This document shows positions 4,848 through 54,900 of a DNA stretch of 64,000 bases, piece by piece. The DNA is from a bacterium (GTDB taxonomy: Bacteria; UBP15; UBA6099; JAJRTR01): contig JAJRTR010000174.1 of the NCBI GenBank assembly GCA_024278215.1, positions 23,489-87,488 of the forward strand, read 5' to 3'. Within the stretch, counting starts at the first letter, position 1. Each line of letters starts with the position of its first letter. The notes beneath the pieces were generated by a model. That model did not search any database and was not told where the DNA came from. It saw nothing but the letters and a program-made list of their open reading frames with translations. A program made the translations under genes and the position numbers.

Positions 4848-4918
4848 GAGCCGATTGCAAAATTCTGATTCGGCTGCGGTCGGCTGCTATTGTCCATAGC
4901 TGCGTTGTCGGCACAAAT
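4848..4918 (-). repeat. Truncated copy (~70 bp, one terminal half) of MITE-like repeat family 1
   Basis: 'gagccgattgcaaaattctgattcggctgcggtcggctg...' matches the reverse complement of the right end of the full copies at 14868-15047 and 45760-45940. Confidence 0.6.
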
Positions 4919-5004
4919 TACCATTTAGACTCAACACGGACTTTTTACGCCGGAATCAAATGTACAAGTTCGCAATGAAAGTCAGCACTTAAGTCCGGGG
5001 TATT

Positions 5005-14540: not shown

Positions 14541-14746
14541 TATCTTACGACTGAAATGCTACGCAGGATGGTAAAGAGATGCTGAAAAGAGATCGCTGAA
14601 AGCTGGAACTTCCAGTTACAGGCGTTTCCAAGGTAGACCTTTGGAATGATGAAACTCTGTGTGCCGTGCTCAAACCGCATTTGTTTGGGCACGAAAATGA
14701 GGCCTGTTTGGTTTCGGCTTTGCCGGTTAGGGGATTCTTTGTAGTG
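14541..14746 (+). repeat. Repeat family 2, copy 1 (~205 bp, conserved hairpin-containing 3' half)
   Basis: 5' 'tatcttacgactgaaatgctacgca.gatggtaaaga' and 3' 'gatgaaac..tgtgtgccgtgctcaaaccgcatttgtttgggcacgaaaatg.ggcct.tttg.t.cggctttgccgg.ttagg' are shared with 28761-28997. Confidence 0.65.
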
Positions 14747-14867
14747 CTTAACTTATGCGAATTCAGATATTTTGTATGAATTTCGGGGACATGACTGGAA
14801 TGCGCCCTTTAATTCCGGATTGTGTCCCCAGGAAATTCAGCGCATGTTTCAAAAACGCACAGTCATA

Positions 14868-15047
14868 AGAGCCGATTGCAAAATTATGTTCGAAGCGAGG
14901 TCGAGCGAAATTGTTCAGAGCAAGGCTGAGGTGTAAAATCCTCGCAGGCGTACTTGTAGAGTACATCGAGGAAGATTTTGCGCCGACAACGCAGCTATAG
15001 ACAATAACAGCCGACCGCAGCAGAATCATAATTTTGCAATCAGCTCT
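14868..15047 (+). repeat. MITE-like repeat family 1, full copy (~180 bp) with 17-bp terminal inverted repeats
   Basis: Starts 'agagccgattgcaaaat' and ends 'attttgcaatcagctct'. Near-identical copies at 45760-45940 (direct) and 20413-20596 (inverted). Confidence 0.7.
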
Positions 15048-15147
15048 TATGTAGTGTTTAAACATGTTAAAAATACTGAATGCCGAATATTTGATGCTGT
15101 TCCATGCTGGTGTTATAATTCCCGTGAATTCATGAGGAAAATCTTTT

Positions 15148-18074: not shown

Positions 18075-19292
18075 TCAACTTTCGATCATTTCCATAAAAC
18101 CCTGCAAGCGTGTCAGGAGTTGCCCCTCGGAGTAATTGCGGCTGTCGACACAGTCCACATCGAGGTTTATCATCGGCACCCCGATCTTCGCAAGGTCCGA
18201 TTTGATGATCTCACGCACACCGCAGTTCTGGCGGCATCCCCAGTGCGAAGGATTAACAGCACCGTCGATTGCATAGTCTTCGCATAACTTCTTCAATATA
18301 TCTATCCTGTGCCCGACTTTTCCGTTCAGCGGGTGTGAGATCAATCGTATGGCAAGCGCCTCGAGCGGCCTGTCCTCGTCCATATCATCCCAGTAGATGT
18401 AGTTAAGTTCATCAATTACAATCTTCGCGTTGTAGTTTTCCTGCAGGTAGTCGATGAGTTTTGTCTTATACTGAATGCGGTTCTGGACCCAGAGGAGCCG
18501 GATGTCTTCCTTCGGCAGGTCGGCGCAACCGTTTTTCAAGTGCTGCTTCGCTTCGTCGAGGAAAACCTGTGCGACTTCGACACCTTCCTTTGTTCCCAGC
18601 AGCAGCGCGAATATTATCTGAAAATTCTTCAGAGTGTCGCTTGTTATCGGTGCGGGCTTTTGCGTGCAAAGTTCATACAATTCACGAATTATCCGTGTCG
18701 CTTCATTCGAGTAGCGAATCGACTCCTTCATTCTGTCCGGGTCGTATTTTTTGCCTGAAAATTCTGTGATATAATCGATCATACCTCGAAATTGCTTAAC
18801 GAGATAATCGGTTTTTTCCCTTGTGACGGGAGGATAGGGTATGTCGATGACAAAAGTTTCGAGCCCGATATTTTCGCCGAGATTCAGAATAGTTTTCAGT
18901 CCGCCGTCGCAGGGTGCCGTTGCGCCTATGAGGAGTTCCGGCCTGCCGATAAAACTGTCGAGCGCGGCGCCGACAAGGGCTCTGTGATATGCGCAGCCAT
19001 CGGGTGAATATCCGAACCGCTCGGCTTTCCGGAGAAACTCCGGTGCCTGGCCTGTGCCCGCGAGCATCGCGCCGATATACTCGACATAGACCGCGCCCAC
19101 ATCCATAGCCTGGAATATCTCGAACGGCATGAACACGCCGGTCCACGCGCTCGCATATTTTTTGTCGAAAAGCTTCCGGCCAATCCTGGCTGTTTCATAG
19201 ACAAGTAATCGGCGGGCGGTTTTCTTATCTTTCAGTTTCTTTTCAAGCGCGTCGACTACACTGTCGAAGTAAATTTCAATTGGTGTTGTCAC
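18075..19292 (-). CDS. 2-hydroxyacyl-CoA dehydratase family subunit (HgdB/HadC/BcrB-like)
   Basis: 405 aa with conserved Cys positions of the HgdB-like Fe-S dehydratase beta family ('ATAPCDGG', 'HWGCRQNC'). 17-bp overlap with the partner gene upstream. Confidence 0.65.
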   Translation of the reverse strand: MTTPIEIYFDSVVDALEKKLKDKKTARRLLVYETARIGRKLFDKKYASAWTGVFMPFEIFQAMDVGAVYVEYIGAMLAGTGQAPEFLRKAERFGYSPDGCAYHRALVGAALDSFIGRPELLIGATAPCDGGLKTILNLGENIGLETFVIDIPYPPVTREKTDYLVKQFRGMIDYITEFSGKKYDPDRMKESIRYSNEATRIIRELYELCTQKPAPITSDTLKNFQIIFALLLGTKEGVEVAQVFLDEAKQHLKNGCADLPKEDIRLLWVQNRIQYKTKLIDYLQENYNAKIVIDELNYIYWDDMDEDRPLEALAIRLISHPLNGKVGHRIDILKKLCEDYAIDGAVNPSHWGCRQNCGVREIIKSDLAKIGVPMINLDVDCVDSRNYSEGQLLTRLQGFMEMIES

Positions 19293-20394
19293 GTGGTATC
19301 GTCCCCCTGGTTTCTTTCAGCATCTCGATAAATGCCTGCACCCGTGTCGCTGCCTGGCCGGCACCTTGCGAATAGTCGCTTTCGAGAAACAGCGCCTTCA
19401 CGTTCATTTCGTCGAGCGCCGTCCTGAGGCGCGGCACATCGTACAGGTGCGTGTCGCAGAATTTCAATGTGTAGACTATCACCCCGTCGGGGTCCTGATG
19501 CGCGACAAGTTCTTTAACTACATCCACAGCAGTTTTCGATGCGGCCATACGCGAGCAAGGTGATTTCGTCAGATATGCTCTCGCCAGTGATCTGCAAAAC
19601 GGTTTGTCCGGTCTGGGCTCCGGAATATTCCAGAAACGGCGGCCCGGGCATACCTCGTCCATCATAACGTGCCCGCCATATTTCTCGACAAGTCGCAGGA
19701 AACCGGGGTCGTCCATCATATTGCCGTAAAGCAACAATCTTGGTCCGACGGGAAACTCCCTGTACTTTATTATCGACTCCTCCTCGTCGAGGAGTTTCAG
19801 CGCGAGCGGCGCGGGCATACGCAGAACCTGCAGCATGACTTCCATCACATAGGAACCTTTCACCTTCGGCGGTTGTCTGCGCCGCGCACCGTCATAACCT
19901 CTGAGCCGCGCACGCAAATACCTGTACAGATCCATCGCGTCAAGTAATTTTTTATCGTCTATTTCTTTTTTGAATGTCGTCTCTATCCAATTTTTAAGTT
20001 CGTCGATTTCACCTGCGAATCTCTCGATATGTTCATCACCATCTTTCTTGGGTACCTGAAGCAGGAAAACCGGTATGCCGGGCTTTCTGCTTCTGACAAT
20101 TTCGTATAGACGCCTCTGTGCGTCGCAGCCGTTTGTCAGGACGAGCGCGTCGAGGAAATCGAGCGTGCCCGATTCGAACTCATCCACCAACGACTTGATG
20201 AACGGGCAAATATTTGTGTGCATCAGAGAATCACCCAACGATGTGGGGCCGTGTGCGCCTGAAATTCTCACAGGTGTCAGTTCCGCTGCCTCGAATATTT
20301 CGAGCGGTGTGTATGTGCAGAACCAGCCTACTGCCGGTCTGCCGTAAGATTTTATCTTCTTCATTTCTTTTTCAGTAAATTGTGTTCCGGCCAT
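19276..20394 (-). CDS. 2-hydroxyacyl-CoA dehydratase family subunit (HgdA/HadB/BcrC-like)
   Basis: 'WFCTYTPLEIFEAAELTPVRI', 'ICPFIKS', 'TNGCDAQRR', 'KFCDTHLYD'. The tracked ORF extends to 20532 through a MITE copy. The Met at 20394 ('MAGTQFTEKEM') is the likely start. Confidence 0.65.
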   Translation of the reverse strand: MAGTQFTEKEMKKIKSYGRPAVGWFCTYTPLEIFEAAELTPVRISGAHGPTSLGDSLMHTNICPFIKSLVDEFESGTLDFLDALVLTNGCDAQRRLYEIVRSRKPGIPVFLLQVPKKDGDEHIERFAGEIDELKNWIETTFKKEIDDKKLLDAMDLYRYLRARLRGYDGARRRQPPKVKGSYVMEVMLQVLRMPAPLALKLLDEEESIIKYREFPVGPRLLLYGNMMDDPGFLRLVEKYGGHVMMDEVCPGRRFWNIPEPRPDKPFCRSLARAYLTKSPCSRMAASKTAVDVVKELVAHQDPDGVIVYTLKFCDTHLYDVPRLRTALDEMNVKALFLESDYSQGAGQAATRVQAFIEMLKETRGTIPRDNTN

Positions 20395-20412
20395 CTTGTC
20401 CTCGCTTCCTAT

Positions 20413-20596
20413 AGAGAGCCAATTGCAAAATTTCGATTCGGCTGCGGTCGGCTGCAATTGTCCATAGCCGCGTTGTCGGCACAAAATCATCCTCAACGTA
20501 CTCGGCGAGTTCGCCTGCGGGGGATTTTGCACCTCCGCCTTGCTTCTGAAAAATTTCGTTCGGCCTCGCTACGAACATAATTTTGCAATTGGCTCT
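20413..20596 (-). repeat. MITE-like repeat family 1, full copy in inverted orientation
   Basis: The reverse complement aligns end to end with 14868-15047 and 45760-45940, including both terminal inverted repeats. Confidence 0.7.
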
Positions 20597-23876: not shown

Positions 23877-24146
23877 AACAGCATTGGACTCAAGCTTTTG
23901 TAAATAATATACTGAATTTATGCGTTTTTGTAAATGGTAATTGTATTTCCGGGAACATCCGGAATTAAATGGCAAATTCCGGTCATGTCCCAGAAGTTTA
24001 CAGGTAATATTGAAAAACATATAAGATCAGATAATTTTACAATCGGCTCTCCTGATAGATATTTTACCAGTTTACTTGACAAAAAGAGTAATACATTTAA
24101 AATACCAGTAAAACGATAAAGTTTATGATAGACATGGGTTTAGTCT

Positions 24147-27319: not shown

Positions 27320-28774
27320 GTGAAGGAGAAGCATGTGATTCCCGAGCAGGTCGACAACTGGATTCGCGAGGAGATTTTCGACCGTGTACCCGTCAGTATA
27401 TGCGTGATTGACAGGGACTTCGGAATAGTCAAAGCGAACGAATATTTCCGTCGCAAATTCGGCAGGATACGGGGCAGGCGTTGTTACGAGGCTTACAAGG
27501 GTAACGACGCCCCCTGCGACGACTGCCGGGCGATGAAAACATTCAGCGACGGCGAAGTGCGCGTAACTCAGGAACTGGGCATAGACCGCGACGGGAATCA
27601 TATTCTATACGTTGTCAGGCTCGCGCCGCTCGTCGAGAAAGACGGCTCGATCCCCTATATCATCGAGATGGCCACGGATATTACCGAAGTTAAATTTCTC
27701 CAGAACCAGCTCCGCGAAAAACAGGAACGCTACCGGCTGCTGTTCGACGAAGTTCCATGTTACATAACGATACAGGACCGCGATTTCAAACTTCTCGAAA
27801 CGAACCGGATGTTTAAAGATCATTTCGGAGACCACAAGGGAGAACACTGCTACGAAGTCTACAAACAACGCACAGAACAATGCTACCCCTGCCCCGTTGC
27901 GCAGACGTTCGAGGACGGGAAAGTTAATCGCAGTGAGATGGTGGTAACGTCTAAAGCAGGCGACACTATAAATGTTGTGTCGTACACAGCACCTATCAGG
28001 GACGCGGCCGGCGACATCATGGCCGTCATGGAAATGTCGACGGACATCACGCAGATACGGCAGTTGCAATCCCAGTTGACCAGTCTCGGCCTGCTCATCG
28101 GATCGATATCTCATGGGATAAAGGGCCTGCTCATGGGGCTCGACGGCGGCATCTATGCGATGGAAACGGGTTTTGAAAAGAACGACCAGCAAAAAATCGC
28201 CAAGGGCTGGGAAATGGTGAAGCGCAATGTCGGTCGTGTGCGCAGCATGGTTCTCGACATCCTTTATTATGCGAAAGAGAGGGCATCTGTTCCTGAAACG
28301 ATAGAAGCGCACGTGCTTGCCGGGGAAGTCGCGGAGATCATGCGGCCCAAAGCTACTACATTCAATATCGTTTTCAACACCGACATTCATGATATCTCCG
28401 GAGATATGGAAGTCGACTACAAGGCGGTTCGCTCGATGCTCGTCAATATTATTGAAAATGCTTTCGAAGCTTGCAGAGTCGACAAGGAGAAAACCATACA
28501 CAAAGTCGATTTCATTTTGCGTGAATCTGGCAATGATGTGGTTTTTGAAATAGTCGACGACGGTATCGGTATGGACAGGGACACAAGGAATAAGATATTC
28601 ACATTGTTCTTTTCGACAAAAGGGACTTCGGGAACCGGACTTGGCCTCTTTATTTCCAATAAGATCGCGCGTGATCATGGAGGAAGCATCGAGGTCGAGT
28701 CGACACTCGGCAAAGGCTCAAAGTTCACAATAAGACTGCCGAGGGATATGCCCTCCGCAGTATCTTACGACTGA
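27320..28774 (+). CDS. Sensor histidine kinase with two tandem 4-Cys PAS domains
   Basis: PAS1 Cys set 'SICVIDRD ... RRCYEAYKGNDAPCDDC'. PAS2 Cys set 'PCYITIQDRD ... HCYEVYKQRTEQCYPC'. H-box 'SISHGIKGLLMGL'. HATPase_c 'DDGIGMD', 'GTGLGLFISNKIARDHGGSIEV'. Starts 21 nt after dsrK. Confidence 0.8.
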   Translation: MKEKHVIPEQVDNWIREEIFDRVPVSICVIDRDFGIVKANEYFRRKFGRIRGRRCYEAYKGNDAPCDDCRAMKTFSDGEVRVTQELGIDRDGNHILYVVRLAPLVEKDGSIPYIIEMATDITEVKFLQNQLREKQERYRLLFDEVPCYITIQDRDFKLLETNRMFKDHFGDHKGEHCYEVYKQRTEQCYPCPVAQTFEDGKVNRSEMVVTSKAGDTINVVSYTAPIRDAAGDIMAVMEMSTDITQIRQLQSQLTSLGLLIGSISHGIKGLLMGLDGGIYAMETGFEKNDQQKIAKGWEMVKRNVGRVRSMVLDILYYAKERASVPETIEAHVLAGEVAEIMRPKATTFNIVFNTDIHDISGDMEVDYKAVRSMLVNIIENAFEACRVDKEKTIHKVDFILRESGNDVVFEIVDDGIGMDRDTRNKIFTLFFSTKGTSGTGLGLFISNKIARDHGGSIEVESTLGKGSKFTIRLPRDMPSAVSYD

Positions 28775-28997
28775 AATGCTACGCATGATGGTAAAGAAAT
28801 GATGAAAAAGAGATCGGTGAACGCGGAGCGTTCAGTCCCTGCGTTCCGGGTCGGAATCAGGATCGATGAAAAACCGGTGTGGACGAGTGTGAGTGTGATG
28901 ACTGTGGGAATGATGAAACCATGTGTGCCGTGCTCAAACCGCATTTGTTTGGGCACGAAAATGCGGCCTTTTTGTTCCGGCTTTGCCGGGTTAGGAA
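28761..28997 (+). repeat. Repeat family 2, copy 2 (~237 bp), overlapping the kinase stop codon
   Basis: Same 5' and 3' conserved blocks as 14541-14746. The TGA of the kinase lies inside 'tatcttacgactga'. Confidence 0.65.
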
Positions 28998-31063: not shown

Positions 31064-34000
31064 ATGCAAAAATCTAATTTGAAACATTTTGTTGTTGCAA
31101 TTTTCATGATCTGTGCAATCTCTGTGCATGCATCGGCTTCCGCCGATTTTACGTCGAGTTGGACAAGTATCGAAACGAATGAAAGCACGTGCTCGGCGTG
31201 GGGCGATTATGACGGGGACGGCGACCTGGACGTTGTAGTCGGCGACGCAAATACCGGCACTATGCTTTACAGCAACGCGGGCGGCGCGTCTTTCAGTATC
31301 GTGTGGCAGTCGGAGGACGCCGACCTTGTCGTCTCACTTGCCTGGGGCGATTACGACCGTGACGGCGACCTGGATATACTTGTCGGCAACAATCCCGGAA
31401 ACAACAGGGTTTACAGCAACAGCGGCGGCGGAGTTTTCACGCTCGCCTGGACTTCCAGCAGTGTCAGGAGAACAGTCAGGGCGGAGTGGGGAGATGCGGA
31501 CGCCGACGGTGACCTGGACTTTCTCGCGGGCGTCTACGATGAACCTGCAAGGGCTTTCAGGAACACGGGCGCGAGCCAATTTGAATTGATATGGAGTTCG
31601 CAGGAATCCGATCCGACTACATGTATCGACTGGGCCGACGCCGATGCGGACGGCGACCTCGATTTTGTAAAAAGTGCGAACAGCGCCGTCGACCGGGTGT
31701 ACCGGAATGAAGGCGGTTCGGCCTACACTCTTATGTGGTCTTCCGCAAGATCGGATAAGGCGTATTTCACCGAATGGAGCGATTACGACGGCGACGGCGA
31801 CCTTGATTTCGCGGTCGCCAATTACGATGAAAAAGACCGTGTCTACAAAAACTCCGGCAACTGGTATTTCGATATGGTCTGGGCTTCGGCGACCGACTCT
31901 CCCTCAATCGGACTGGCATGGGGCGACTACGACGGCGATGGTGACAGCGATTTGCTCTTCGGCAACTACGCTGCAAGCAATAATGTTGTTGCTTACGCCG
32001 GTTCCGATAATTTCACTGATTCATGGTCTTCGCCGGAAGCCGATTATACATACCAGGTGACATGGGCCGACTACGACGGCGACGGCGATCTCGACCACTT
32101 CGTTTCAAACATCAGCAGCCAGTCAAACCGACTCTACAAGAATAATCTTTCCATATCCAATTCACCGCCTGCGGCCCCGGTGATTACCGGACAGCCGGAC
32201 GGTCTGCCCGGACTCATCACGCTTAGCTGGTCCGCCGCATCCGACGACATCACACCCGCTGTGGACCTCACTTACCAGGTGCGCGTGGGCACTTGCTCTG
32301 GGTGTGGCGGCATAATATCGGGCGCTTTCGCGCCTCCTTTCGGCAATTCGCGACAGACGGAATTCCATAAACTTAATATCCAGGACGACGGTACGTATTA
32401 CTGGTCAGTGGCCGCCGTCGATAGCGCTGGGTTCTCGACCTCGACATGGTATGTCGAGGACTCGTTCACAATATCTGCTCCGAGCGGAACTCCGTACCAG
32501 TCTATATGGACCGGTCCGTCGTCTGACCAGACAACAGCTATTGCGACCGCCGACTACGACGACGACGGTGACCTCGATTTTATTGCCGCCAATGACTCTG
32601 AAGTCAATACAGTGTACAGGTATAACGGTAACAATACTTTCACCGCCGTGTGGTCGTCTCCGGAAACAGACGCCACGAACGACGCGGCATGGGCCGACTA
32701 CGACGGGGACGGCGACCTCGACCATGCTGTCGCCGACAACGGCGCGAACCGCGTCTACTCCAAAACGGACGATTACAACTTCAGCCTCGTCTGGTCATCG
32801 ACGGAAACCTCCAACTCACTCGCGACAGCCTGGGGAGACTACGACCGCGACGGCGATCTCGATTTATTTGCGGGCAACGTCGGCGCGAACCATCTGTACA
32901 GAAACAATTCGGACGACACATTTACTCTCGTCTGGACTTCGACAGAAACAGACACGACTTCGGGCGCGGTATGGCTCGACGCCGACGCCGACGGCGTTCC
33001 GGACATTTTCTGCGCCTCCGACGGCACTTCCGACAGGCTCTACTTGAACAACGGTGACGACACTTTCACTCTCGCATGGTCATCGACTCAGACAGACGCG
33101 ACAAAAGACGCGGCGGCGGCGGATTATGACGGGGACGGACTCGTGGACATTTCCGCGCCTGCGGTCGGCGCGACACAAAACAGGCTCTACTCAAATAACG
33201 GCGACGGCACTTTCACTCTCGCATGGTCATCGACTCAGACAGATGAAACATATTCGTGCACATGGGGCGATTACGACGGTGACGGCGACTGGGACCTGCT
33301 TGCCGGCAACAGCGGCGTCAACAGGGTATACGCGGGCGACGGCGCGGGCGGCTTCACGCTCGAGTGGTCATCCGCTGAAGGCGAAGTCACTTACGCTGCC
33401 GCATGGGGCGATGTGGACGGCGACGGCGACCTTGATATAATCTCCGGTAACAACACTTCGGCCAACAGGCTATATCTTTACACCTCCGATATCTCGAACC
33501 TCAACCCGGCCGCGCCCGTTTTAGTCGCCGGGAGCAACGCGACACTTTCCGGCGCTACCGTTTCCGTTACTTTCAACTGGAACGCTGCCGTCGACGACAC
33601 GACCGCCCCTGTCTCGATGATGTACCATCTGCGTGCCGGCACATGTTCCGGTTGCGACGACATCGTTTCCGGAGCTTACGCTTCACCAGTTCCCAATGTC
33701 GGCGCGACAACTTCCATTTCCATCGTTTTCGATGCTACCGGCACATACTACTGGTCTGTTGCTGCCATCGACAACACTTCTCTAAGTGCGTCATCATGGA
33801 GTTCGGAGGATAGCTTCGAGATTATCGAGCCCACGGGAACACAAACGCCGTTCGAGTCGATATGGACCGGAACGGATATCAACCTGACTCGAGATGCCGC
33901 GTGGGGCGACTACGACGGCGACGGCGATCTTGATTTCTTTGCAGCGAACTATACGCAGGGAAATTTCGTATACCGCAACGACGGCAGCGCTACTTTCAAT

Positions 34001-37000
34001 AAAGTTTACGAAGACAACCTTTTCTCATATACAACATCCGGTGCGTGGGGTGACTACGACGGCGACGGCGATCTCGATTTGCTGTTCTCAAACTATAATG
34101 AAAGCAATTACGTTTTTAAAAACACGGGAAGTGACGATTTCGTGTCGGCATGGTCCACAACGCAGGCGAATTCAACAAACGACGCCGAGTGGGGCGATAT
34201 GGACGGCGACGGCGATCTCGATTTCATCGCGGGCAATGACGGCCAGTCGATTTTAGTTTTCAGCAACAACGGATCGGGCGGTTTCACGTATGGCTGGGGC
34301 TCGACGGAAACGAATAATACGAGTTCTATTTCAGTGGTCGATTTCGATAAGGACGGTGACCTCGATTTCATCGCGGTGAACAACGGACAGTCCGATATTA
34401 TCTACGATAACGGCGGAGGCGGCACTTTCAGCGTCGCCTGGACGTCTGCTGAAACAGACAGCGGCAGCGGCGGCGCGTGGGGTGACTATGACGGCGACGG
34501 CGACTACGACATAGCCGTAGCCAACAACACGCAGTCGAATCGCGTTTACTCGAACGCCGGGGCCGCAAACTTCACATCGGTCTGGACATCCACGGAGGCG
34601 GATGCGTCGCACACTGCCGCGTGGGGCGACTACGACGGCGACGGCGATCTCGACCTGCTTTTCGGCAACTATTATACGACTTCCGACACCGACAGAGTCT
34701 ACACCAACGCAGGCGGCGACAATTTCCCGCTGGGCTGGTCGGCGACAAATCAGGAATACACGCGCGCGGCGGCCTGGGGCGATTACGACGGCGACGGCGA
34801 TCTCGATTTCATCGCGGCCAACGAAGACGGCTCCGACAGGATTTACAGAAACAATCTTTCCATCTCCAACACCGCTCCGCCCGCTCCCACACTGACGTTA
34901 ATTGACGACGGTGACCCGGGTACGGTCGTTTTTCAATGGGCTGCCACTTCCGATGACATCACCCCCGACAGCCTGCTTGCATTCCAGTTGCGCGTCGGCA
35001 CGTGCACGGGCTGCGACGACATTATAAGCGGCGAATTCGCGCCTCCTTTTGTCAACATGGGCGCTACCGGCTCCTACCCGATGATACTCGGCAACGGCGA
35101 TTATTACTGGTCCATTGCTTCTGTCGACACCACAGGTTTCTCTGTTTCCTCGTGGAGCACAGAAGACGACTTTCACCTCGAACATATACCGGCAGTCCCA
35201 TTCGAGTCCACATGGCAAAGCACCGAAAGCAACAGGACGGCGGCACTCGCATTGGGCGATTTCGACGGCGACAGCGACCTCGACCACATTGCTGCCGACT
35301 CCGATTCGATTCGCCTTTACCGCAACACAGGATCGTATTCTTTCACGCTCGCCTGGTCATCGTCGTCGATGACAAACAACATGGATGCCGCGTGGGGCGA
35401 CTACGACGGCGACGGCGATCTCGATTTCGCTGTTTCCACCGGCTCGGGCGGTTACGTGTCGGTCTATGAGCAGACAACTTACGCCGCCTTTTCATCCGTA
35501 TGGGCTTCGTCTCAAACAGATAAAACATACAGTGTCGCGTGGGCCGACTGCGACGCGGACGGCGACCTCGACCTTCTAACCGCCAATCTCGCGGACGGCT
35601 CGACTGGTTCGAACAACAGGGTATACCGTAACGAAGGCCGCGGCGACTTTGTCGTCAACTGGACATCTGCCGAGGCCGACATAACTTATGATGCCGCGTG
35701 GGGCGATTACGATGGCGACGGCTACAGGGATATTGTCGCGGGAAACGACGGCGCGAACAGGATTTACCGAAATGTCGCATGTGACTACTTCACCATCGTG
35801 TGGACTTCCGTCGAAAGCGACAGGACGACCGGCGTCGCGTGGATGGACTACGACGGCGACGGCGACCTTGATTTCGCCGCGGGCAGCGCGGACGGCAACG
35901 ACCGTGTTTATAATAACGACGGCGCGGGCGGTTTCTCCGCCGTGTGGACTTCCACCGCCACATCGACGACTTCATCAGTCGCATGGGGCGACTACAACGC
36001 CGACGGCTACCCCGATCTCGCTTCAGTCAACAACAGTTCTATCGCCGATTCGGAACATGTTTACGGCAACAACGGCGACGATACCTTTTCGACAGCGTGG
36101 AACTCGCCTCTCGATGAGGAATCGCAGGACGTCGCATGGGGCGACATCGACGGCGACGGCGACCTCGACCTGCTCATAGCTTCCGGCGGCGACACATCGG
36201 CGGATGCGAATATCCTGTATGTCAATTACGTCGAGCCGGCGAACAACGCACCTACTACTCCGTCCGTAACCGTGGTTCCAGACGGTTTCACCGGCTATGT
36301 CGACCTGCAATGGACTGCTTCAACTGATGATGTTACTCCGTCTGATGAAATCCGCTACATCGTCCGGGCCGGTACTTGCTCCGGTTGCAACGACATCATT
36401 TCCGGCCTCTATTCGCCGCCTCTGACCAATGCCGGTACGGCAACTAGTTACAGGGTACATATCGCCGGTGCGGATACATATTACTGGCAGGTTAAGGCGA
36501 TAGATATGGCAGGCTTCCGCGAATCAGGCTGGTCGAACGCCGATGATTTCGTCTTGACAGACCGTTTCTCATCCGCATGGACCGGAAGCGCATATTACAA
36601 TATTGAAGATGTCGCGTGGGGCGACTACGACGGCGACGGCGACCTCGACATAGCTGCGGCGGTAAACGGTACGCCCAACCTTGTTATCGAAAACAGCGGT
36701 GGCGGCAGTTTTTCGACGGTTTGGTCTTCTTCCGAAAGCGATTACACACGCTCCGCCGCCTGGGGCGACGCGGACAACGACGGCGATCTCGATATTCTCG
36801 TGGGCAACACCGATTCGGCTTCGGGCGGCGACCAGAACCGCGTCTATTCCAACAACGGCGACGGCACGTTTACTGTCACATGGTCCACCTTTGAAATGAA
36901 CCGTACTTACGATGCTGTGTTTACAGACTGCGACGCGGACGGCGACCTCGATATTGTCGCCGCTAATGAATATGAAAACATAATTTACACCAATAATGGC

Positions 37001-40000
37001 GGTAGTTCGTTCACTTCAAGTTCATTGTCTTCACACCAGGAGCGGACACGGGCGCTATCTCCCGCCGACTTCGATGCCGACGGCGACTTCGACTTGCTCG
37101 AAGGCAACTACGGCGCGCCCAACAGGGTATTCAGAAACGACGGCTCGGGCAATTTCTCCGAACTGTGGGCCTCTTCCGGCAGTGAATATACCTCTGCTGT
37201 CGCATGGGCCGACACAGACGGCGACGGCGACCTCGACGCTTTCTTCGGCAACAGTTACGTGGGTGCACTGAACTATATTAATGTTAATGACGGCGCGGGT
37301 TCGTTCTCCGCCTCATGGACATCGCGCGACGCCGACGAAACTTATGACGCCGCGTTCGGCGACACAGACGGCGACGGGGACCTCGACCTGATTACCGCCA
37401 ACAGCGATTCTGATTCCACCCGCGATAATTACAGGCTCATCCGCGTTTACTCGAATTCCGGCGGCAACTTGTTCGCGGCATCGGCAAACATGGGAGCCGG
37501 CGATTATGCCGTTGCTGTCGCGCTCGGCGACTATGACGGCGACGGCGACCTCGATATCCTCGAAGGTTCGAGCGACGGCGGCGACGACATGCCTGTTCGT
37601 GTGTATATGAATAACATGGACCCGTCGAATGCCGCTCCATCCGCGCCGTCTGTTATCAAAACAGACAACCAGGTTCTCTCAGCCGCTACTTCTCCGATCT
37701 CCATAGCGTGGTCCGCACCGTCCGACGACATCACAGTCACCGCGCTCCTGTCATATCAGTTACGTATCGGCACATGCCCCGGCTGCAGCGATGTTATGTC
37801 GGGCGCTTTCGCGCCTCCCGGCGGCAATATCGGCGCGACGACTGCTGTCAATATCAACATGTCCGATTCTGGCACGTACTACTGGTCGGTCGCGGCGGTG
37901 GACAACACAGGCTTCGCGACAGGCGCATGGTCGGACGAGGAATTTTTCGCCGTTTCACTTCCCCTGTTCGATACAGGTTGGACGAGTCCCGAAGGTGGAA
38001 CATGCAGGGATGCCGCGGCAGGTGACTTCGACGGCGACGGCGACCTCGATATTGCATCGAGCTTCGACGCGCAGAATATGGTTTATGAGAATAACGGCAG
38101 TGGCTCTTTCAGCGACGCATGGACATCCGCCGAGTCTGAAAACACGATGGAAGTCGCATGGGGCGACTACGACAACGACGGCGACCCGGACATACTTGTC
38201 GCCTCCGCAAACGGGCCTGCGAGGATATATAAAAACACTGGCGGCACCTTCTCTACTGCATGGTCATCCATTATGAGCGTGCAGGGCGGCGGCGTCTCAT
38301 GGGCCGACCTCGACAACGATGGCGACCTCGACTTCGCCGCCTCGAGCTACGGCATAAACAATCTCGTCTACAGAAACGACGGCGGCGATTCTTTCACCCT
38401 TTCATGGCTTTCCAGCGACACAGACAACACAACTGACGTCGAATGCGCCGACTTCGACAATGACGGCGACAGCGACATTGCCGCTGCGAATGAGTCCGGA
38501 CCTGTGAAGCTTTACGCAAACGACGGCGCGGGCAGTTTCATTGCTGTCTGGACATCCTCCGACACCGGCTACACAAGTGGGATTTCGACCGGAGATTACG
38601 ACGGTGACGGCAATTTGGATATGCTCACGGTGGCTGGTTCTTCATACTACAACAGAGTGTACCGGGGCGGTGGCGGCGGCACATTCACAGCCGTGTGGAC
38701 CGCTGGAGAGGACGGTCCGTTTTCCGGCGGCGCGTGGGGCGACTACGACGCGGACGGCGACCTCGATTTCTTCGTCTCCTACAGCGGCACAGACAGTCGT
38801 GGCAGCCACGTTTATCGCAATACAGGTAGTGATTCCTTCAACCTCGTGTGGGCGTCGCTGAATGATGACGCGTCGTACAGCGCCGCCTTCGGCGATTTCG
38901 ACGGCGACGGCAATATCGATCTGCTCTCGGCGAATACCGGCGTAAGAACATGGACGAATATGTCCACCGTATCGAACAGCGCGCCCGCGCAGCCGACTGT
39001 AACAGCCGTCGGCGATCAGGAATTCCACATCTCGGCCACTCCTGCCGTAACACTGTCATGGACCGCGCCCTCCGACGACTACACACCCTCGAATTCACTC
39101 ACATACCAGGTGCGAGTCGGCACTTGTTCGGGATGTAGCGACATCGTCTCCGACACTTTCGTGCCGCCGTGGGGCAACGCCGGCCCTTCGACGTCATACA
39201 CTTTCAACGCGACCGCATCCGGCACTTATTACTGGAGTGTATCCGCCGTGGACACTTCGGGGTTCCTCGTGGGCGCGTCGAGCGCGGAGGATGTCTTCGA
39301 TGTTTCATTTTCGATGCTCGGCACAAGGACACCGTTCGATTACTCGTGGTACGGCAGCGCGTCCGACTACAGCAGCGGCAGCGCCTGGGGCGACTACGAC
39401 GCCGACGGCGACCTCGACATCCTGATTTCAGACGCCGGCGCGTCCGCCGGCAACAGGATATACTCGAACGACGGCGGCAACACCTTCACGCTCGCGTGGA
39501 CGGCGACTGAATGGAACACAACGGAAGCCGCCGCCTGGGCTGACTACGACGGTGACGGCGACCTCGACGCTGTTTTCGTTTCAGGCGGTTCGGGCGAGCC
39601 GAATTATGTTTACCGAAATGTTGGCGCGGGCGGCTTCGTAGTCGGTTGGACTTCGACGGAAACCGAGCCTTCGCAGGCCGTTGCCATCGGCGATTTCGAC
39701 GGCGATGGCGATCTTGATATCTTCGTCGGAAATAACAGCGCGTCTGTTCCTGACCGCGTTTATAAAAATGTTTCCACAGGTTTCACCACCGCCTGGACTT
39801 CGTCTTCATACTACACGACGCGCGCCGTGGATATGGCAGACTACAACCTCGACGGTCGCCCCGACTTACTGCTCGGCAACAGCGGCTCTGCCATGGAACC
39901 GATTGTCATATATTCGAACAAAGGCGGCGAGTGTTTCACCGAAGCCTGGACTTCGTCCGAGCAGGAATACACTTCCGCCGTCGAGTGGGGCGACTACGAC

Positions 40001-42571
40001 GGCGACGGCGACCTCGACATCGCCGCCGGCAACTGGATGGGCGACGAAACTATCAGGATATACGCCAACATCAGCGGTAATTACTCTTCCGTCTGGACCC
40101 GCTCCAGCGTCGACAGAACCGTCGATGTCGCCTGGGGCGACTACGACGGCGATGGCGACCTCGATCTGCTCGCCGGCAACGCGGAAGTCAACTATAAATA
40201 TAATCGCATCTTCACAAACGACGGCGGCGATTCTTTCTCTCTCTACTGGTCTTCTGCCGAAGACGAGAGTACCGGTGATGTCGACTGGGCGGATTACGAC
40301 AACGACGGCGACCTTGACTTCTTCGCTGCAAACAACGGTATCGACAGGGTTTATACGAACAACGACAACCCGTCGAACACCCCCCCGTCCGCGCCGGTCG
40401 TCAATGCTGTGCCGGACGGCTATACCGGTCGAATATCCTTCTCGTGGTCGGCGGCTTCGGACGACATAACAGGCGGCAGCGCACTTAACTACCAGGTGCG
40501 CATCGGCACATGTTCAGCTTGCGACGACATCATGCCGGGCGAATTCTCACCACCACGCACGAATGCAGGAGCGACTACTTCCATCACTCTCGGCATCGCC
40601 GAGACCGGAACATATTACTGGTCGGTAGCCGCCGTTGACGCCACCGGTTTCTCCGTATCGTCATGGAGCGCGGAGGACACTTTCACATTGACTGAGCCCT
40701 CGGGGACATTCTCGACATTCTGGCTGGACATGACTTCTGACGAGACGCGCGGCGTCGCCTGGGGCGATTACGACGGTGACGGCTACCTCGATTTCGCCGC
40801 TGGTAATTACGGGCAGCCCAACCGGATTTTCCGAAACAGCGGCGGTACTGCTTTCGTGTTTACGTGGAAAACCACTGAGGCCGACAACACTACCGGCGTC
40901 GCATGGGGCGACTACAACGGCGACGGCTACCTCGACCTGCTCGCACCTTCTTACAACAGCAAAAACCGCGTTTACCGCTACGACGGCGGCGACTTCACAC
41001 TCGCATGGTCTTCGGATAATTCGGATACGACCACGGACGCCCTGTGGGGTGACAGCGACAACGACGGCGACCTCGATATTTTCGTTGCCGACAAAGGACA
41101 GGCACTTCGCGTTCTCAACAATTCTAATGGGAGTTTCTCTTCCGTGTGGACTTCGCTTCAGGCCTACAATACGAATTCTATTGACTGCGGTGATTTCGAC
41201 GGCGACGGCGACCTCGATATCATTGCAGGCATCGGCGGTTCCGCTTCGAACAGAATTTATGAAAATTCAGGCAGCAACTTATTTGTGCTTGTCTGGTCGT
41301 CCGCGCAGACTTACTCGACTGAATATGTGCTGTGGGGCGATTACGACGGCGATGGCGACCTCGATATTTTCTCTGCAAATACCGGCGGTTCGGACCCGAA
41401 TGTCATTTATTCAAATTACGGTCTGCGCACCTTTGTGCAAACGTGGGCCTCTGCTGAAATGGAAACATCACAGGCAGCCGCACACGGCGACTACGACGGC
41501 GACGGCGATTTCGACATCGTTGTCGGAAACACCGATGAAACTTCCAACCGCGTCTACAGCAACGACGGTTCCGGCAGTTTCACTCTCCAGTGGACATCCC
41601 CGCATACGGAAGACACGTACAGCATCGCTTTCGGCGACTTAGACAACGACGGCGACATCGACATGCTCGCGGGCGGCGACACGCTGCGCGTTTATGAAAA
41701 CAACACAGACCCCGCGAACACCGCGCCCGTCGCTTCGGATTTAACCGCTGTTTCGGATGCGGAAATTCAGGGAGATTCTCTCGATGTCGCTTTTCTGTGG
41801 TCCGACGCCGGCGACGATCTCACCGCGGCACCCCTGCTGTCGTATCAACTCCGAATCGGCACATGCTCGGGTTGCGACGACATCGTATCCGGCACATTCG
41901 TGCCCCCGTCCGGCAATATCACCGCCACTCAAACTTTTATAACTTTCAGCACTGCCGGTGATTACTACTGGTCTGTGCGCGCTGTGGACAGCACGGGCTT
42001 CTCCGCCGGAAGCTGGAGTTCGGAGGACACTTTCACACTCACTTTCGGCGCTCAGCAGACGACAACATTGACCTCCGGCTGGAATCTCATGACATTCCCC
42101 GGCGACATAGCTTCGAGCACTATCAGCTCATCTCTCAGTACTTACTCTGATGTCGGCGACACATTCGGTTTCTCCGGCGGCAAACTTATTGAAGGAACAA
42201 GCGTTAATGTCGAACTCGCTTCAGGCTACTGGGTATACGCGGAAAACTCCGTGGAAATAACACTCGGCGGCGCGTCGGCTACGCCAGACTCTCAAACCGT
42301 CACTGTCTCTCCACTCGACAACGGCTGGAACCTCGTCGGAAATCCTTATGTGAAATATCTGAAATGGGCCGACAACATAACCATCGACTGCGGCTCAGGA
42401 GACACAGTTCTTTCCGGTGCCGTGACAGCAGGATATACCGACGGCAACATATATGAATATTCGGGGTCAGGGTATGAAAAAATATCCAGCGGCGACTACA
42501 TAAAACCATGGAACGCATTTTTTATTAGGATCGAGCAAACCTGCTGCTCGATGAAGCTCACACTTGATTAA
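31064..42571 (+). CDS. Giant secreted FG-GAP/VCBS-repeat protein (3835 aa), eight [7-bladed propeller + FN3-like] modules
   Basis: Signal peptide 'MQKSNLKHFVVAIFMICAISVHASASA'. About 60 copies of 'AWGDYDGDGDLD..(N)..NRVY.N.G.G.FT..W.S'. Eight copies of an FN3-like unit '(LSWSA.SDDITP...YQLRIGTCSGCDDIVSG.F.PP...T......GTYYWSVAAVD.TGFS.S.WS)'. Confidence 0.85.
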   Translation: MQKSNLKHFVVAIFMICAISVHASASADFTSSWTSIETNESTCSAWGDYDGDGDLDVVVGDANTGTMLYSNAGGASFSIVWQSEDADLVVSLAWGDYDRDGDLDILVGNNPGNNRVYSNSGGGVFTLAWTSSSVRRTVRAEWGDADADGDLDFLAGVYDEPARAFRNTGASQFELIWSSQESDPTTCIDWADADADGDLDFVKSANSAVDRVYRNEGGSAYTLMWSSARSDKAYFTEWSDYDGDGDLDFAVANYDEKDRVYKNSGNWYFDMVWASATDSPSIGLAWGDYDGDGDSDLLFGNYAASNNVVAYAGSDNFTDSWSSPEADYTYQVTWADYDGDGDLDHFVSNISSQSNRLYKNNLSISNSPPAAPVITGQPDGLPGLITLSWSAASDDITPAVDLTYQVRVGTCSGCGGIISGAFAPPFGNSRQTEFHKLNIQDDGTYYWSVAAVDSAGFSTSTWYVEDSFTISAPSGTPYQSIWTGPSSDQTTAIATADYDDDGDLDFIAANDSEVNTVYRYNGNNTFTAVWSSPETDATNDAAWADYDGDGDLDHAVADNGANRVYSKTDDYNFSLVWSSTETSNSLATAWGDYDRDGDLDLFAGNVGANHLYRNNSDDTFTLVWTSTETDTTSGAVWLDADADGVPDIFCASDGTSDRLYLNNGDDTFTLAWSSTQTDATKDAAAADYDGDGLVDISAPAVGATQNRLYSNNGDGTFTLAWSSTQTDETYSCTWGDYDGDGDWDLLAGNSGVNRVYAGDGAGGFTLEWSSAEGEVTYAAAWGDVDGDGDLDIISGNNTSANRLYLYTSDISNLNPAAPVLVAGSNATLSGATVSVTFNWNAAVDDTTAPVSMMYHLRAGTCSGCDDIVSGAYASPVPNVGATTSISIVFDATGTYYWSVAAIDNTSLSASSWSSEDSFEIIEPTGTQTPFESIWTGTDINLTRDAAWGDYDGDGDLDFFAANYTQGNFVYRNDGSATFNKVYEDNLFSYTTSGAWGDYDGDGDLDLLFSNYNESNYVFKNTGSDDFVSAWSTTQANSTNDAEWGDMDGDGDLDFIAGNDGQSILVFSNNGSGGFTYGWGSTETNNTSSISVVDFDKDGDLDFIAVNNGQSDIIYDNGGGGTFSVAWTSAETDSGSGGAWGDYDGDGDYDIAVANNTQSNRVYSNAGAANFTSVWTSTEADASHTAAWGDYDGDGDLDLLFGNYYTTSDTDRVYTNAGGDNFPLGWSATNQEYTRAAAWGDYDGDGDLDFIAANEDGSDRIYRNNLSISNTAPPAPTLTLIDDGDPGTVVFQWAATSDDITPDSLLAFQLRVGTCTGCDDIISGEFAPPFVNMGATGSYPMILGNGDYYWSIASVDTTGFSVSSWSTEDDFHLEHIPAVPFESTWQSTESNRTAALALGDFDGDSDLDHIAADSDSIRLYRNTGSYSFTLAWSSSSMTNNMDAAWGDYDGDGDLDFAVSTGSGGYVSVYEQTTYAAFSSVWASSQTDKTYSVAWADCDADGDLDLLTANLADGSTGSNNRVYRNEGRGDFVVNWTSAEADITYDAAWGDYDGDGYRDIVAGNDGANRIYRNVACDYFTIVWTSVESDRTTGVAWMDYDGDGDLDFAAGSADGNDRVYNNDGAGGFSAVWTSTATSTTSSVAWGDYNADGYPDLASVNNSSIADSEHVYGNNGDDTFSTAWNSPLDEESQDVAWGDIDGDGDLDLLIASGGDTSADANILYVNYVEPANNAPTTPSVTVVPDGFTGYVDLQWTASTDDVTPSDEIRYIVRAGTCSGCNDIISGLYSPPLTNAGTATSYRVHIAGADTYYWQVKAIDMAGFRESGWSNADDFVLTDRFSSAWTGSAYYNIEDVAWGDYDGDGDLDIAAAVNGTPNLVIENSGGGSFSTVWSSSESDYTRSAAWGDADNDGDLDILVGNTDSASGGDQNRVYSNNGDGTFTVTWSTFEMNRTYDAVFTDCDADGDLDIVAANEYENIIYTNNGGSSFTSSSLSSHQERTRALSPADFDADGDFDLLEGNYGAPNRVFRNDGSGNFSELWASSGSEYTSAVAWADTDGDGDLDAFFGNSYVGALNYINVNDGAGSFSASWTSRDADETYDAAFGDTDGDGDLDLITANSDSDSTRDNYRLIRVYSNSGGNLFAASANMGAGDYAVAVALGDYDGDGDLDILEGSSDGGDDMPVRVYMNNMDPSNAAPSAPSVIKTDNQVLSAATSPISIAWSAPSDDITVTALLSYQLRIGTCPGCSDVMSGAFAPPGGNIGATTAVNINMSDSGTYYWSVAAVDNTGFATGAWSDEEFFAVSLPLFDTGWTSPEGGTCRDAAAGDFDGDGDLDIASSFDAQNMVYENNGSGSFSDAWTSAESENTMEVAWGDYDNDGDPDILVASANGPARIYKNTGGTFSTAWSSIMSVQGGGVSWADLDNDGDLDFAASSYGINNLVYRNDGGDSFTLSWLSSDTDNTTDVECADFDNDGDSDIAAANESGPVKLYANDGAGSFIAVWTSSDTGYTSGISTGDYDGDGNLDMLTVAGSSYYNRVYRGGGGGTFTAVWTAGEDGPFSGGAWGDYDADGDLDFFVSYSGTDSRGSHVYRNTGSDSFNLVWASLNDDASYSAAFGDFDGDGNIDLLSANTGVRTWTNMSTVSNSAPAQPTVTAVGDQEFHISATPAVTLSWTAPSDDYTPSNSLTYQVRVGTCSGCSDIVSDTFVPPWGNAGPSTSYTFNATASGTYYWSVSAVDTSGFLVGASSAEDVFDVSFSMLGTRTPFDYSWYGSASDYSSGSAWGDYDADGDLDILISDAGASAGNRIYSNDGGNTFTLAWTATEWNTTEAAAWADYDGDGDLDAVFVSGGSGEPNYVYRNVGAGGFVVGWTSTETEPSQAVAIGDFDGDGDLDIFVGNNSASVPDRVYKNVSTGFTTAWTSSSYYTTRAVDMADYNLDGRPDLLLGNSGSAMEPIVIYSNKGGECFTEAWTSSEQEYTSAVEWGDYDGDGDLDIAAGNWMGDETIRIYANISGNYSSVWTRSSVDRTVDVAWGDYDGDGDLDLLAGNAEVNYKYNRIFTNDGGDSFSLYWSSAEDESTGDVDWADYDNDGDLDFFAANNGIDRVYTNNDNPSNTPPSAPVVNAVPDGYTGRISFSWSAASDDITGGSALNYQVRIGTCSACDDIMPGEFSPPRTNAGATTSITLGIAETGTYYWSVAAVDATGFSVSSWSAEDTFTLTEPSGTFSTFWLDMTSDETRGVAWGDYDGDGYLDFAAGNYGQPNRIFRNSGGTAFVFTWKTTEADNTTGVAWGDYNGDGYLDLLAPSYNSKNRVYRYDGGDFTLAWSSDNSDTTTDALWGDSDNDGDLDIFVADKGQALRVLNNSNGSFSSVWTSLQAYNTNSIDCGDFDGDGDLDIIAGIGGSASNRIYENSGSNLFVLVWSSAQTYSTEYVLWGDYDGDGDLDIFSANTGGSDPNVIYSNYGLRTFVQTWASAEMETSQAAAHGDYDGDGDFDIVVGNTDETSNRVYSNDGSGSFTLQWTSPHTEDTYSIAFGDLDNDGDIDMLAGGDTLRVYENNTDPANTAPVASDLTAVSDAEIQGDSLDVAFLWSDAGDDLTAAPLLSYQLRIGTCSGCDDIVSGTFVPPSGNITATQTFITFSTAGDYYWSVRAVDSTGFSAGSWSSEDTFTLTFGAQQTTTLTSGWNLMTFPGDIASSTISSSLSTYSDVGDTFGFSGGKLIEGTSVNVELASGYWVYAENSVEITLGGASATPDSQTVTVSPLDNGWNLVGNPYVKYLKWADNITIDCGSGDTVLSGAVTAGYTDGNIYEYSGSGYEKISSGDYIKPWNAFFIRIEQTCCSMKLTLD

Positions 42572-43533: not shown

Positions 43534-43933
43534 TATTCTTCACCTCGAAGTCATATATATAGCAGGATTCACCCGCCAATCCAATAAAAATCGAAAAACA
43601 AATCCCGACCCGGCATAGCCGGAACCAGAAAGGTCGCATTTTTCACCGATCTCTTTTCAACATTTCTTTACCACCTTGCGCAGGATCTCATTATTATTCA
43701 ATCCAGTTGATAAATACCACCTCACTGTGCAAGTATATCTGAAACCGTAAACTATTAAGGATATTTTTATTAACAAAACTTTTCTTATCACTGTATACGC
43801 GGCACTGTGCGTCACTTTCTTTTTTTCACATACCTCTCTTGCAGACCGGTGCGCAGAGGGCGCATGGGAGTGTTCGGAAGACGGATATACGCTGAAAACA
43901 TGTACGAAAGGCACATGGATCACGCGGGAGTGC

Positions 43934-45538: not shown

Positions 45539-45759
45539 ATCTGAAATTCCGCTTTTCATTTATACATCAATGAAACAAAAGCCTTCGCGGCGGGAACTTA
45601 TATATATATTTGTTTGTCTGTATTTGATGCCACATTATTAACTGAACTTGTGCGTTTTTATAAAAGGTAGTGCCATGGCAACATAGAAAAAATGTAAGAT
45701 GGGGTAGCGTAAAAACTATTAAAGTGTAGGGCGGGGGCACCGTACCCAGCCTCAACTTG

Positions 45760-45940
45760 TGAGCCAGTTGCAAAATCATGTTCGAAGCGAGGTCGAGCGA
45801 AATTGGTCGGAAGCAAGGCGGAGGTGCAAAATCCCCGCAGGCGTACTTGTAAAGTACGTCGAGGATGATTTTGTGCCAACAACGCAGCTGTTGCCAATTG
45901 CAGCCGACCGTAGCCGAATCAGAATTTTGCAATTGGCTCT
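45760..45940 (+). repeat. MITE-like repeat family 1, full copy (direct orientation)
   Basis: 'gagccagttgcaaaatcatgttcgaagcgaggtcgagcgaaatt ... agaattttgcaattggctct', colinear with 14868-15047. Confidence 0.7.
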
Positions 45941-46141
45941 TGTGCCTGTACAAATTGTTTTCGCGAGAAATATGTTCAGGCGGGCTACGGTGCCCCCGCC
46001 CTTCCCGCGTCATTACAATCCTGACGTGACAGTAGTCGAATTTATGGAGACACGATCCGGAACTAAGGTCAAATTTCTGTTATGTCCCCTAAATTCTCAC
46101 AATATATTGAAAAACGCACATGTTTAGCTATTAAATTGTAA

Positions 46142-54869: not shown

Positions 54870-54900
54870 AGAACCGATTGCAAAATCATGTTCGTCGCAG
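54870..54900 (+). repeat. MITE-like repeat family 1, 31-bp terminal fragment
   Basis: 'agaaccgattgcaaaatcatgttcgtcgcag' matches the left end of the full copies. Confidence 0.45.

Follow-up and report, generated by a model that had tools for sequence, protein, structure and literature searches.

Correia elements of Neisseria, ERIC/IRU, and RUP are small intergenic MITEs bounded by terminal inverted repeats (TIRs); they are often cotranscribed with neighboring genes, each element as a whole is an imperfect palindrome that forms a long RNA hairpin, and effects on mRNA have been documented for them. REP/BIME units are also imperfect palindromes, short ones of about 20 to 40 nt that are associated with RAYT and lack target duplications. 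Within the IS1182 family of insertion sequences (ISs), Methanosarcina acetivorans carries MITEs derived from ISMac2, 160 to 169 bp long and present in 7 to 14 copies; one family of them has a direct repeat of 4 bp (PMC3852290). Another member, IS1272, targets stem-loops, which it replaces without leaving a duplication (PMC5678879).

Here, we analyzed a palindromic repeat that is dispersed over 64,000 nucleotides of a bacterial contig (this whole stretch is referred to as the window). Our data make it very probable that the repeat is a noncoding MITE moved in trans by an ISUnCu17-like DDE transposase of the IS1182 family. Direct support comes from its ends, its target duplications, an element-free spacer in a relative, an autonomous IS that matches, and several independent MITE families built on the same ends. 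The element has the characteristics by which MITEs are recognized, namely, small size, TIRs, duplications of fixed length, dispersed copies that differ by presence or absence, and ends in common with an autonomous IS. The first-pass annotation had offered two identities for it, a nonautonomous transposable element, which holds, and a structured regulatory RNA family, of which the conserved hairpin exists but does not constitute the primary identity. The same annotation had regarded the element as specific to this lineage. It is not, since metagenomes from many sites contain 78 or more homologous elements and many more with only the ends in common; the family is widespread and a fairly ordinary kind of mobile DNA.

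Direct reading and alignment identified three full copies of 178 to 180 nt and three truncated copies in the window (Table 1), and all six are intergenic, in agreement with the gene-end and intergenic positions previously assigned to them. Five copies had been counted before; the three full and two truncated ones stand, as do the orientations given for the full copies, but a sixth remnant was missed. The terminal motif GAGCCRRTTGCAAAAT occurs nine times in the window when up to two mismatches are allowed, versus 0.18 occurrences expected from shuffles. This pattern search also found the remnant at 24031-24049, with one mismatch in its 19 nt, and a profile built from the copies recovered both of the other truncated copies, 4848-4919 and 54871-54898. 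The TIRs, described previously as 17 bp long with an AGAGCC start, are real, but the element itself starts at GAGCC, the preceding A or T being flank, and the exact TIR is 16 bp, reading GAGCCnnTTGCAAAAT at both ends, beyond which imperfect pairing continues along the whole element. Similarly, the internal core gaggtgcaaaatcc, thought to be conserved throughout, is found in two copies, but copy 14869 reads GAGGTGTAAAATCC at that place. None of the reading frames stays open across all copies.

Table 1. Copies of the element in the window and database gene calls that contain a copy
Feature	Position or identifier	Strand	Description
Full copy 1	14869..15046	+	178 nt; TIRs 14869-14884 and 15031-15046; 3' TIR with one mismatch, AGCTC
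Full copy 2	45761..45939	+	179 nt; perfect 4-bp duplication TTGT at 45757-45760 and 45940-43
Full copy 3	20416..20595	-	180 nt; flanks TTTA / TCTA (3/4 match)
Truncated copy	4848..4919	-	3' 72 nt (profile positions 108-179), 3' TIR included
Truncated copy	54871..54898	+	5' 28 nt including 5' TIR (GAACCGATTGCAAAAT)
Truncated copy	24031..24049	-	5' 19 nt (GAGCCGATTGTAAAATTAT); directly abuts palindromic repeat 23905-24033
MITE-bearing gene call	P0028		HicA-like protein with false 3' extension
MITE-bearing gene call	P0029		NCBI protein; false extension
MITE-bearing gene call	P0030		PhoH-like ATPase with false N-terminal extension

Target duplications in the window are perfect for copy 45761 (TTGT/TTGT), match at three of four positions for copy 20416 (TTTA/TCTA), and are absent for copy 14869, as its flanks read ATAA and TTAT. 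The latter copy lies upstream of a promoter-like site (15091-15119) and of a peptidase C25 gene that starts at 15148, and the truncated copy 54871-54898 lies 28 nt upstream of the start of a DUF190 gene on the other strand. Copy 45761 is inserted within a 29-nt GC-rich inverted repeat (45728-45756 / 45974-46002), the arms of which are 90% complementary; the loop that took the copy would have been ~34 nt before the insertion. The three full copies are 86.0 to 87.7% identical to one another. Given this divergence of 12 to 14%, a perfect duplication at only one of the three, and the truncation of half of all copies, the copies look like old insertions in decay and not like the products of recent activity that had been proposed.

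Two other palindromic or leader-like repeats share parts of the window with the element. One, of ~120 nt, has copies at 14747-14867 (+) and 23905-24033 (-) and a third that is split between 45635-45659 and 46040-46134 (-). It has GGGGACATGACCGGAAT...ATTCCGGAT.GTGTCCCC as its core hairpin, with ends similar to TTAATAGCTAAACATGTGCGTTTTT / AAAAACGCACA.GTT.AG. Every copy of this repeat touches a copy of the MITE, and at 45.6 to 46.1 kb the three are nested, with the MITE inside the GC-rich inverted repeat and the latter inside the ~120-nt repeat, which might represent another MITE family or a favored landing site. The other repeat, of ~100 nt, is found at 14552-14650 (+), 28772-28870 (+), and 43590-43690 (-), contains CTGAAATGCTACGCAGGATGGTAAAGAAATG.TGAAAAGAGATCGGTGAAAGC, and lies 5' of the C25 peptidase region, a response regulator gene, and a gene for a ParA/NUBPL-like ATPase. 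It has no Rfam match even at E ≤ 10 and could be a shared leader or a cis-regulatory RNA. The window additionally contains one open reading frame (ORF) of 3,835 amino acids (aa) at 31064-42571 (+), composed of FG-GAP/VCBS-like Asp-rich repeats of about 48 aa (WGDYDGDGDLD) that are arranged in super-repeats of roughly 1.35 kb, with more than 50 repeat units detected.

Beyond the window, metagenomes were scanned with a pattern that requires both TIRs 135 to 165 nt apart, and this TIR-gap-TIR pattern matched no fewer than 120 loci. Among the matches listed, the elements measure 168 to 196 nt, with a mode of 177 nt. The first-pass annotation had advised looking for flanking target-site duplications, and among these listed matches perfect 4-bp duplications abut GAGCC...GGCTC at 71 of 113 distinct sites, while a further 18 of the 113 match at three of the four positions. 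The listed sites also reveal a weak, symmetric, AT-rich target preference of roughly T..C|AWWT|G..A. Insertion into individually palindromic sites, as described for IS1272, was considered and rejected for the metagenome flanks, in which mirrored complementarity amounts to 3.17 of 10 positions versus 3.09 under the null. Scanning genome contigs with the bare 16-mer TIR gave chance matches only, with no locus similar to the element over more than 21 nt; a scan of metagenomes for a 3'-terminal 30-mer of the window subfamily gave no match, nor did the TIR-gap-TIR pattern in viral contigs.

All-against-all clustering placed the three full window copies together with at least 78 metagenome elements in one cluster (cluster 0), the members of which are homologous from end to end at ~70% identity. 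Another 15 or more clusters have only the ends (GAGCCnnTTGCAAAAT) in common with cluster 0, so that at least 16 unrelated interiors occur in total. The members of these other families, at loci L110-L229, are 168 to 196 nt long, with unrelated and often strongly structured interiors. To judge from the sequences, such a variety of interiors on the same ends would be expected if one type of transposase mobilizes anything that lies between two ends. Other copies are hidden in protein databases, where six-frame translation uncovered eight or more additional members of the window subfamily as spurious ORF translations. They include the NCBI gene calls P0028-P0030 (Table 1), among which a secreted protein also carries a false N-terminal extension, and five short ORFs (P0031-P0036), whereas P0038 corresponds to a copy in the window itself. 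The copies in P0028-P0036 probably come from the same genome as the window.

An autonomous partner came into view at one locus (L207) among 877 kb of MITE-bearing loci, where a solo TIR lies 170 nt after the stop codon of a truncated DDE_Tnp_1 transposase gene. This transposase has more than 7,800 homologs at E ≤ 1e-10, of which the full-length ones comprise 356 to 367 aa with DUF772 (PF05598) and DDE_Tnp_1 (PF01609) domains, and the retrieved copies are part of elements of 1,396 to 1,400 bp with the ends GAGCCTCTTGCAAAAG / TTTTTGCAAGAGGCTC (GAGCCTCTTGCAAAAA for the end on the other strand). One of these IS copies is flanked by the duplication TTTT; others have mismatched flanks, which look like the result of chimeric assembly. 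Some flanks of the 1,396-bp elements at L231 and L235 match across contigs and not within them, with "tcac" to the left of L231 and to the right of L235, a pattern that suggests chimeric assembly across identical IS copies. The best NCBIfam model for the transposase is IS1182, at 83 bits versus a cutoff of 270, and the next, IS5, is also below its curated cutoff; the IS1182 label therefore rests on the identical ends and on the PGAP annotation of relatives, i.e., plasmid-encoded proteins named "IS1182 family" and "IS1182-like element ISUnCu17 family" that are 44 to 52% identical to it (tblastn). An ISUnCu17-family copy on the Aeromonas caviae plasmid pKAM643_2 is 1,483 bp long, with the ends GAGCCTCTTGCAAAA/TTTTGCAAGAAGCTC and the duplication ATGA/ATGA, and the left end of the ISUnCu17-family copy at L239 is identical at 15 of 15 nt. 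Thus, on sequence grounds, both the ends and the duplication length agree with those of a curated IS type. A match to a known IS end had been listed beforehand as something that would refute the initial interpretation; the ends are indeed those of an ISUnCu17-type IS1182 element, which identifies a mobilizing partner and leaves the MITE reading intact. In the literature library that was searched, neither ISUnCu17 nor the TIR string is mentioned in any paper.

A transposase with matching terminal repeats, for which a search had been advised, exists in ISs elsewhere, but none of the ISUnCu17-like type is encoded within the 64-kb window. A cognate transposase acting in trans on ends of the form GAGCCRRTTGC presumably exists, or existed, in the source genome. 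The lack of such a gene in the window counts against this model, as do the NCBIfam scores below the cutoffs, the RR at TIR positions 6 and 7 of the window copies versus TC in all sampled IS copies, and the fact that a perfect duplication is missing at two of the three full copies. The interior is a further point against it: we considered whether the element arose from the sampled IS copies by simple internal deletion and rejected this because there is no clear similarity past the TIR, where the MITE and the sampled IS ends share only a short CGGTCGGC-like subterminal motif. In the mechanism that we propose, the transposase would recognize the 16-bp TIRs (GAGCCnnTTGCAAAAT) and insert the element through a 4-bp staggered cut, yielding the 4-bp target-site duplication, with the target chosen according to the weak, symmetric, AT-rich preference described above. 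The interior of cluster 0 elements would fold as one long imperfect hairpin, apparently preserved by compensatory changes, and wherever a copy is transcribed, as is probably the case in the HgdB-like leader, it would add a stem-loop of roughly -70 to -85 kcal/mol to the mRNA. Such a stem-loop might have a regulatory effect.

A gene for an HgdB-like 2-hydroxyacyl-CoA dehydratase starts at 20394, and copy 20416-20595 separates its start codon and ribosome-binding site from a TATAAT box; this position makes it probable that the copy lies within the 5' leader of that gene. As noticed in the first-pass annotation, the copy stretches the ORF call. The longest ORF, 19276..20532, extends into it, and the start of the 372-aa protein at 20394 is common to the database protein P0001 and its 72%-identical homolog P0002. 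The nearest available relative (Logan assemblies, L108/L109) is distant, with 72% amino acid identity of the HgdB-like protein, and does not represent an exact empty site. It has kept the EamA-HgdB gene order, and its orthologous spacer, 121 nt long, contains no trace of the element as judged by BLAST and spacer length, the two criteria on which this absence rests because the spacers are too diverged for an alignment of the leader to be informative. When the element is subtracted from the window's spacer, a similar distance remains from the TATAAT box to the start codon. Together with the element-free spacer, this argues that copy 20416 is an insertion into the leader.

Folding of the consensus, another step that had been suggested at the outset, was carried out with RNAalifold on a nonredundant alignment of 28 sequences and yielded a single long hairpin of 56 pairs. 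Changes on both sides occur at 27 pairs, versus 12.8 ± 1.9 in shuffles; 95.2% of the cells are paired, versus 87.4% in shuffles and ~40% with slid partners, and double-change cells number 109 versus 30. The hairpin is strand asymmetric, with 155 G-U cells versus 26 A-C cells and with G-U, always on the same strand, at every position of fixed mismatch, and in 71 of 73 members the RNA of the G-U strand folds more stably than the complementary RNA (means of -86.7 versus -76.7 kcal/mol). With regard to gene context, all three full copies in the window are co-oriented with the downstream gene, and the metagenome loci, on crude ORF calls, show 19 sense versus 8 antisense tandem contexts (p = 0.05) and 11 divergent contexts to 1 convergent context. 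Rfam gave no match at the gathering score over the whole window and none at E ≤ 1 over 45600-46150, which holds copy 45761. Scans around copies 14869 and 45761 revealed no terminator-like site, copy 20416 contains one weak terminator-like match, no more than shuffles give, and the element ends show no convincing outward-facing hybrid promoter.

The conservation of this hairpin, its G-U pairs on one strand, and the weak co-orientation bias leave room for a role at the RNA or single-strand level. A MITE lineage might have been co-opted or selected as a strand-specific structured RNA, with transposition merely as its means of spread; by analogy with Correia and ERIC elements, such a stem-loop in 5' leaders or between cistrons might alter mRNA stability, processing, or read-through. 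The excess of compensatory pairs over the shuffles and the higher share of paired cells than with slid partners speak for this scenario. The covariation, also present near the ends, reaches the central helices, far from where the transposase would bind, and the G-U excess, the greater stability of one strand, and the orientation of the copies point in the same direction. However, the copies are related by descent, and the asymmetry may trace to 5 to 8 positions in one founder. Sporadic mismatches, which arose after insertion, are A-C about as frequently as G-U, contrary to what ongoing strand-specific selection on individual copies would leave behind. The bias in orientation is of marginal significance, the probable promoter of the C25 peptidase gene comes after copy 14869, which is not in the transcript, and neither Rfam nor the terminator scans lend support. 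Furthermore, the interiors are unrelated in other MITE families with the same ends, and the stem would likewise be preserved by arm-to-arm correction through template switching in the palindrome or by the need for a single-stranded DNA hairpin in transposition. The hairpin data are compatible with selection on a strand-specific single-stranded structure, descent from one founder, arm-to-arm correction, or a requirement of transposition, and we regard co-option as a structured RNA as rather unlikely. A broader idea is that selection acts on the hairpin as a strand-specific structure of RNA or single-stranded DNA, which would make the element a mobile, self-spreading cis-regulatory stem-loop across distant hosts instead of a mere parasite of the ISUnCu17-type transposase; we hold it to be similarly doubtful.

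Being intergenic, palindromic, and present in multiple copies, the element could also be taken for a REP/BIME-type palindromic unit or some other repeat maintained by the host through a RAYT (Y1) transposase or host proteins. At ~180 nt it is several times the size of a REP, though, and neither 4-bp duplications nor 16-bp TIRs identical to those of a DDE insertion sequence are REP features; clustered BIME-like arrays are absent as well, and we consider this explanation highly improbable. That the repeats might be artefacts of assembly or binning, arising from collapsed or chimeric reads, had been raised in advance, and the metagenome-assembled source of the contig and the mismatched flanks of some full IS copies are all that favors it. 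The divergence of 12 to 14% between the window copies excludes collapsed identical reads, the flanks of these copies differ, and members of the family, with duplications specific to each site, occur in over 100 independent contigs of many projects, so an artefactual origin is next to impossible.

Recognition of the element as a MITE with an IS1182-type partner has practical consequences. It becomes possible to mask its copies or annotate them as mobile-element repeats and to correct spurious ORFs and N-terminal extensions such as the long HgdB-like call and P0028-P0030, and contig breaks and repeat families can be explained by such copies, here and in many metagenome assemblies. In addition, an unnamed but evidently abundant MITE chassis, defined by GAGCCnnTTGCAAAAT ends, a 4-bp duplication, and at least 16 unrelated interiors, becomes tied to the ISUnCu17 branch of IS1182. 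The one feature that merits follow-up is the hairpin of cluster 0, which is strand asymmetric and unusually well conserved and provides a testable case of whether MITE stems are preserved for transposition or for effects at the RNA level.

Considering the described systems again, the element resembles Correia, ERIC/IRU, and RUP in that the whole of it is an imperfect palindrome forming a long hairpin, but its sequence is unrelated to theirs, and the partners and duplications differ (TA for Correia). With IS1272 it has in common the IS family, by annotation, as well as a certain association with palindromes, since copy 45761 lies inside a 29-nt inverted repeat and three of the six window copies touch another palindromic repeat; in contrast to IS1272 (PMC5678879), elements of the present family make 4-bp duplications, and their metagenome flanks are not individually palindromic. 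The ISMac2-derived MITEs, which we liken to it by description, are likewise MITEs with an IS1182-family partner but differ in their archaeal host, their partner IS, and their inverted repeats of 25 to 26 bp (PMC3852290). The closest match is the ISUnCu17/IS1182 type itself, represented by the pKAM643_2 copy and the 1,396-bp elements at L231-L238. These are autonomous elements of 1.4 to 1.5 kb encoding a DDE transposase of 356 to 389 aa, whereas the MITE is noncoding and has 178 to 180 nt, an interior unrelated to the sampled IS ends, and RR instead of TC at positions 6 and 7 of the window TIRs. Nevertheless, the two have identical or nearly identical terminal sequences of 15 to 16 bp (GAGCCTCTTGCAAAA) and both make a 4-bp duplication, and the transposase that moves the MITE probably comes from an IS of the ISUnCu17 type.
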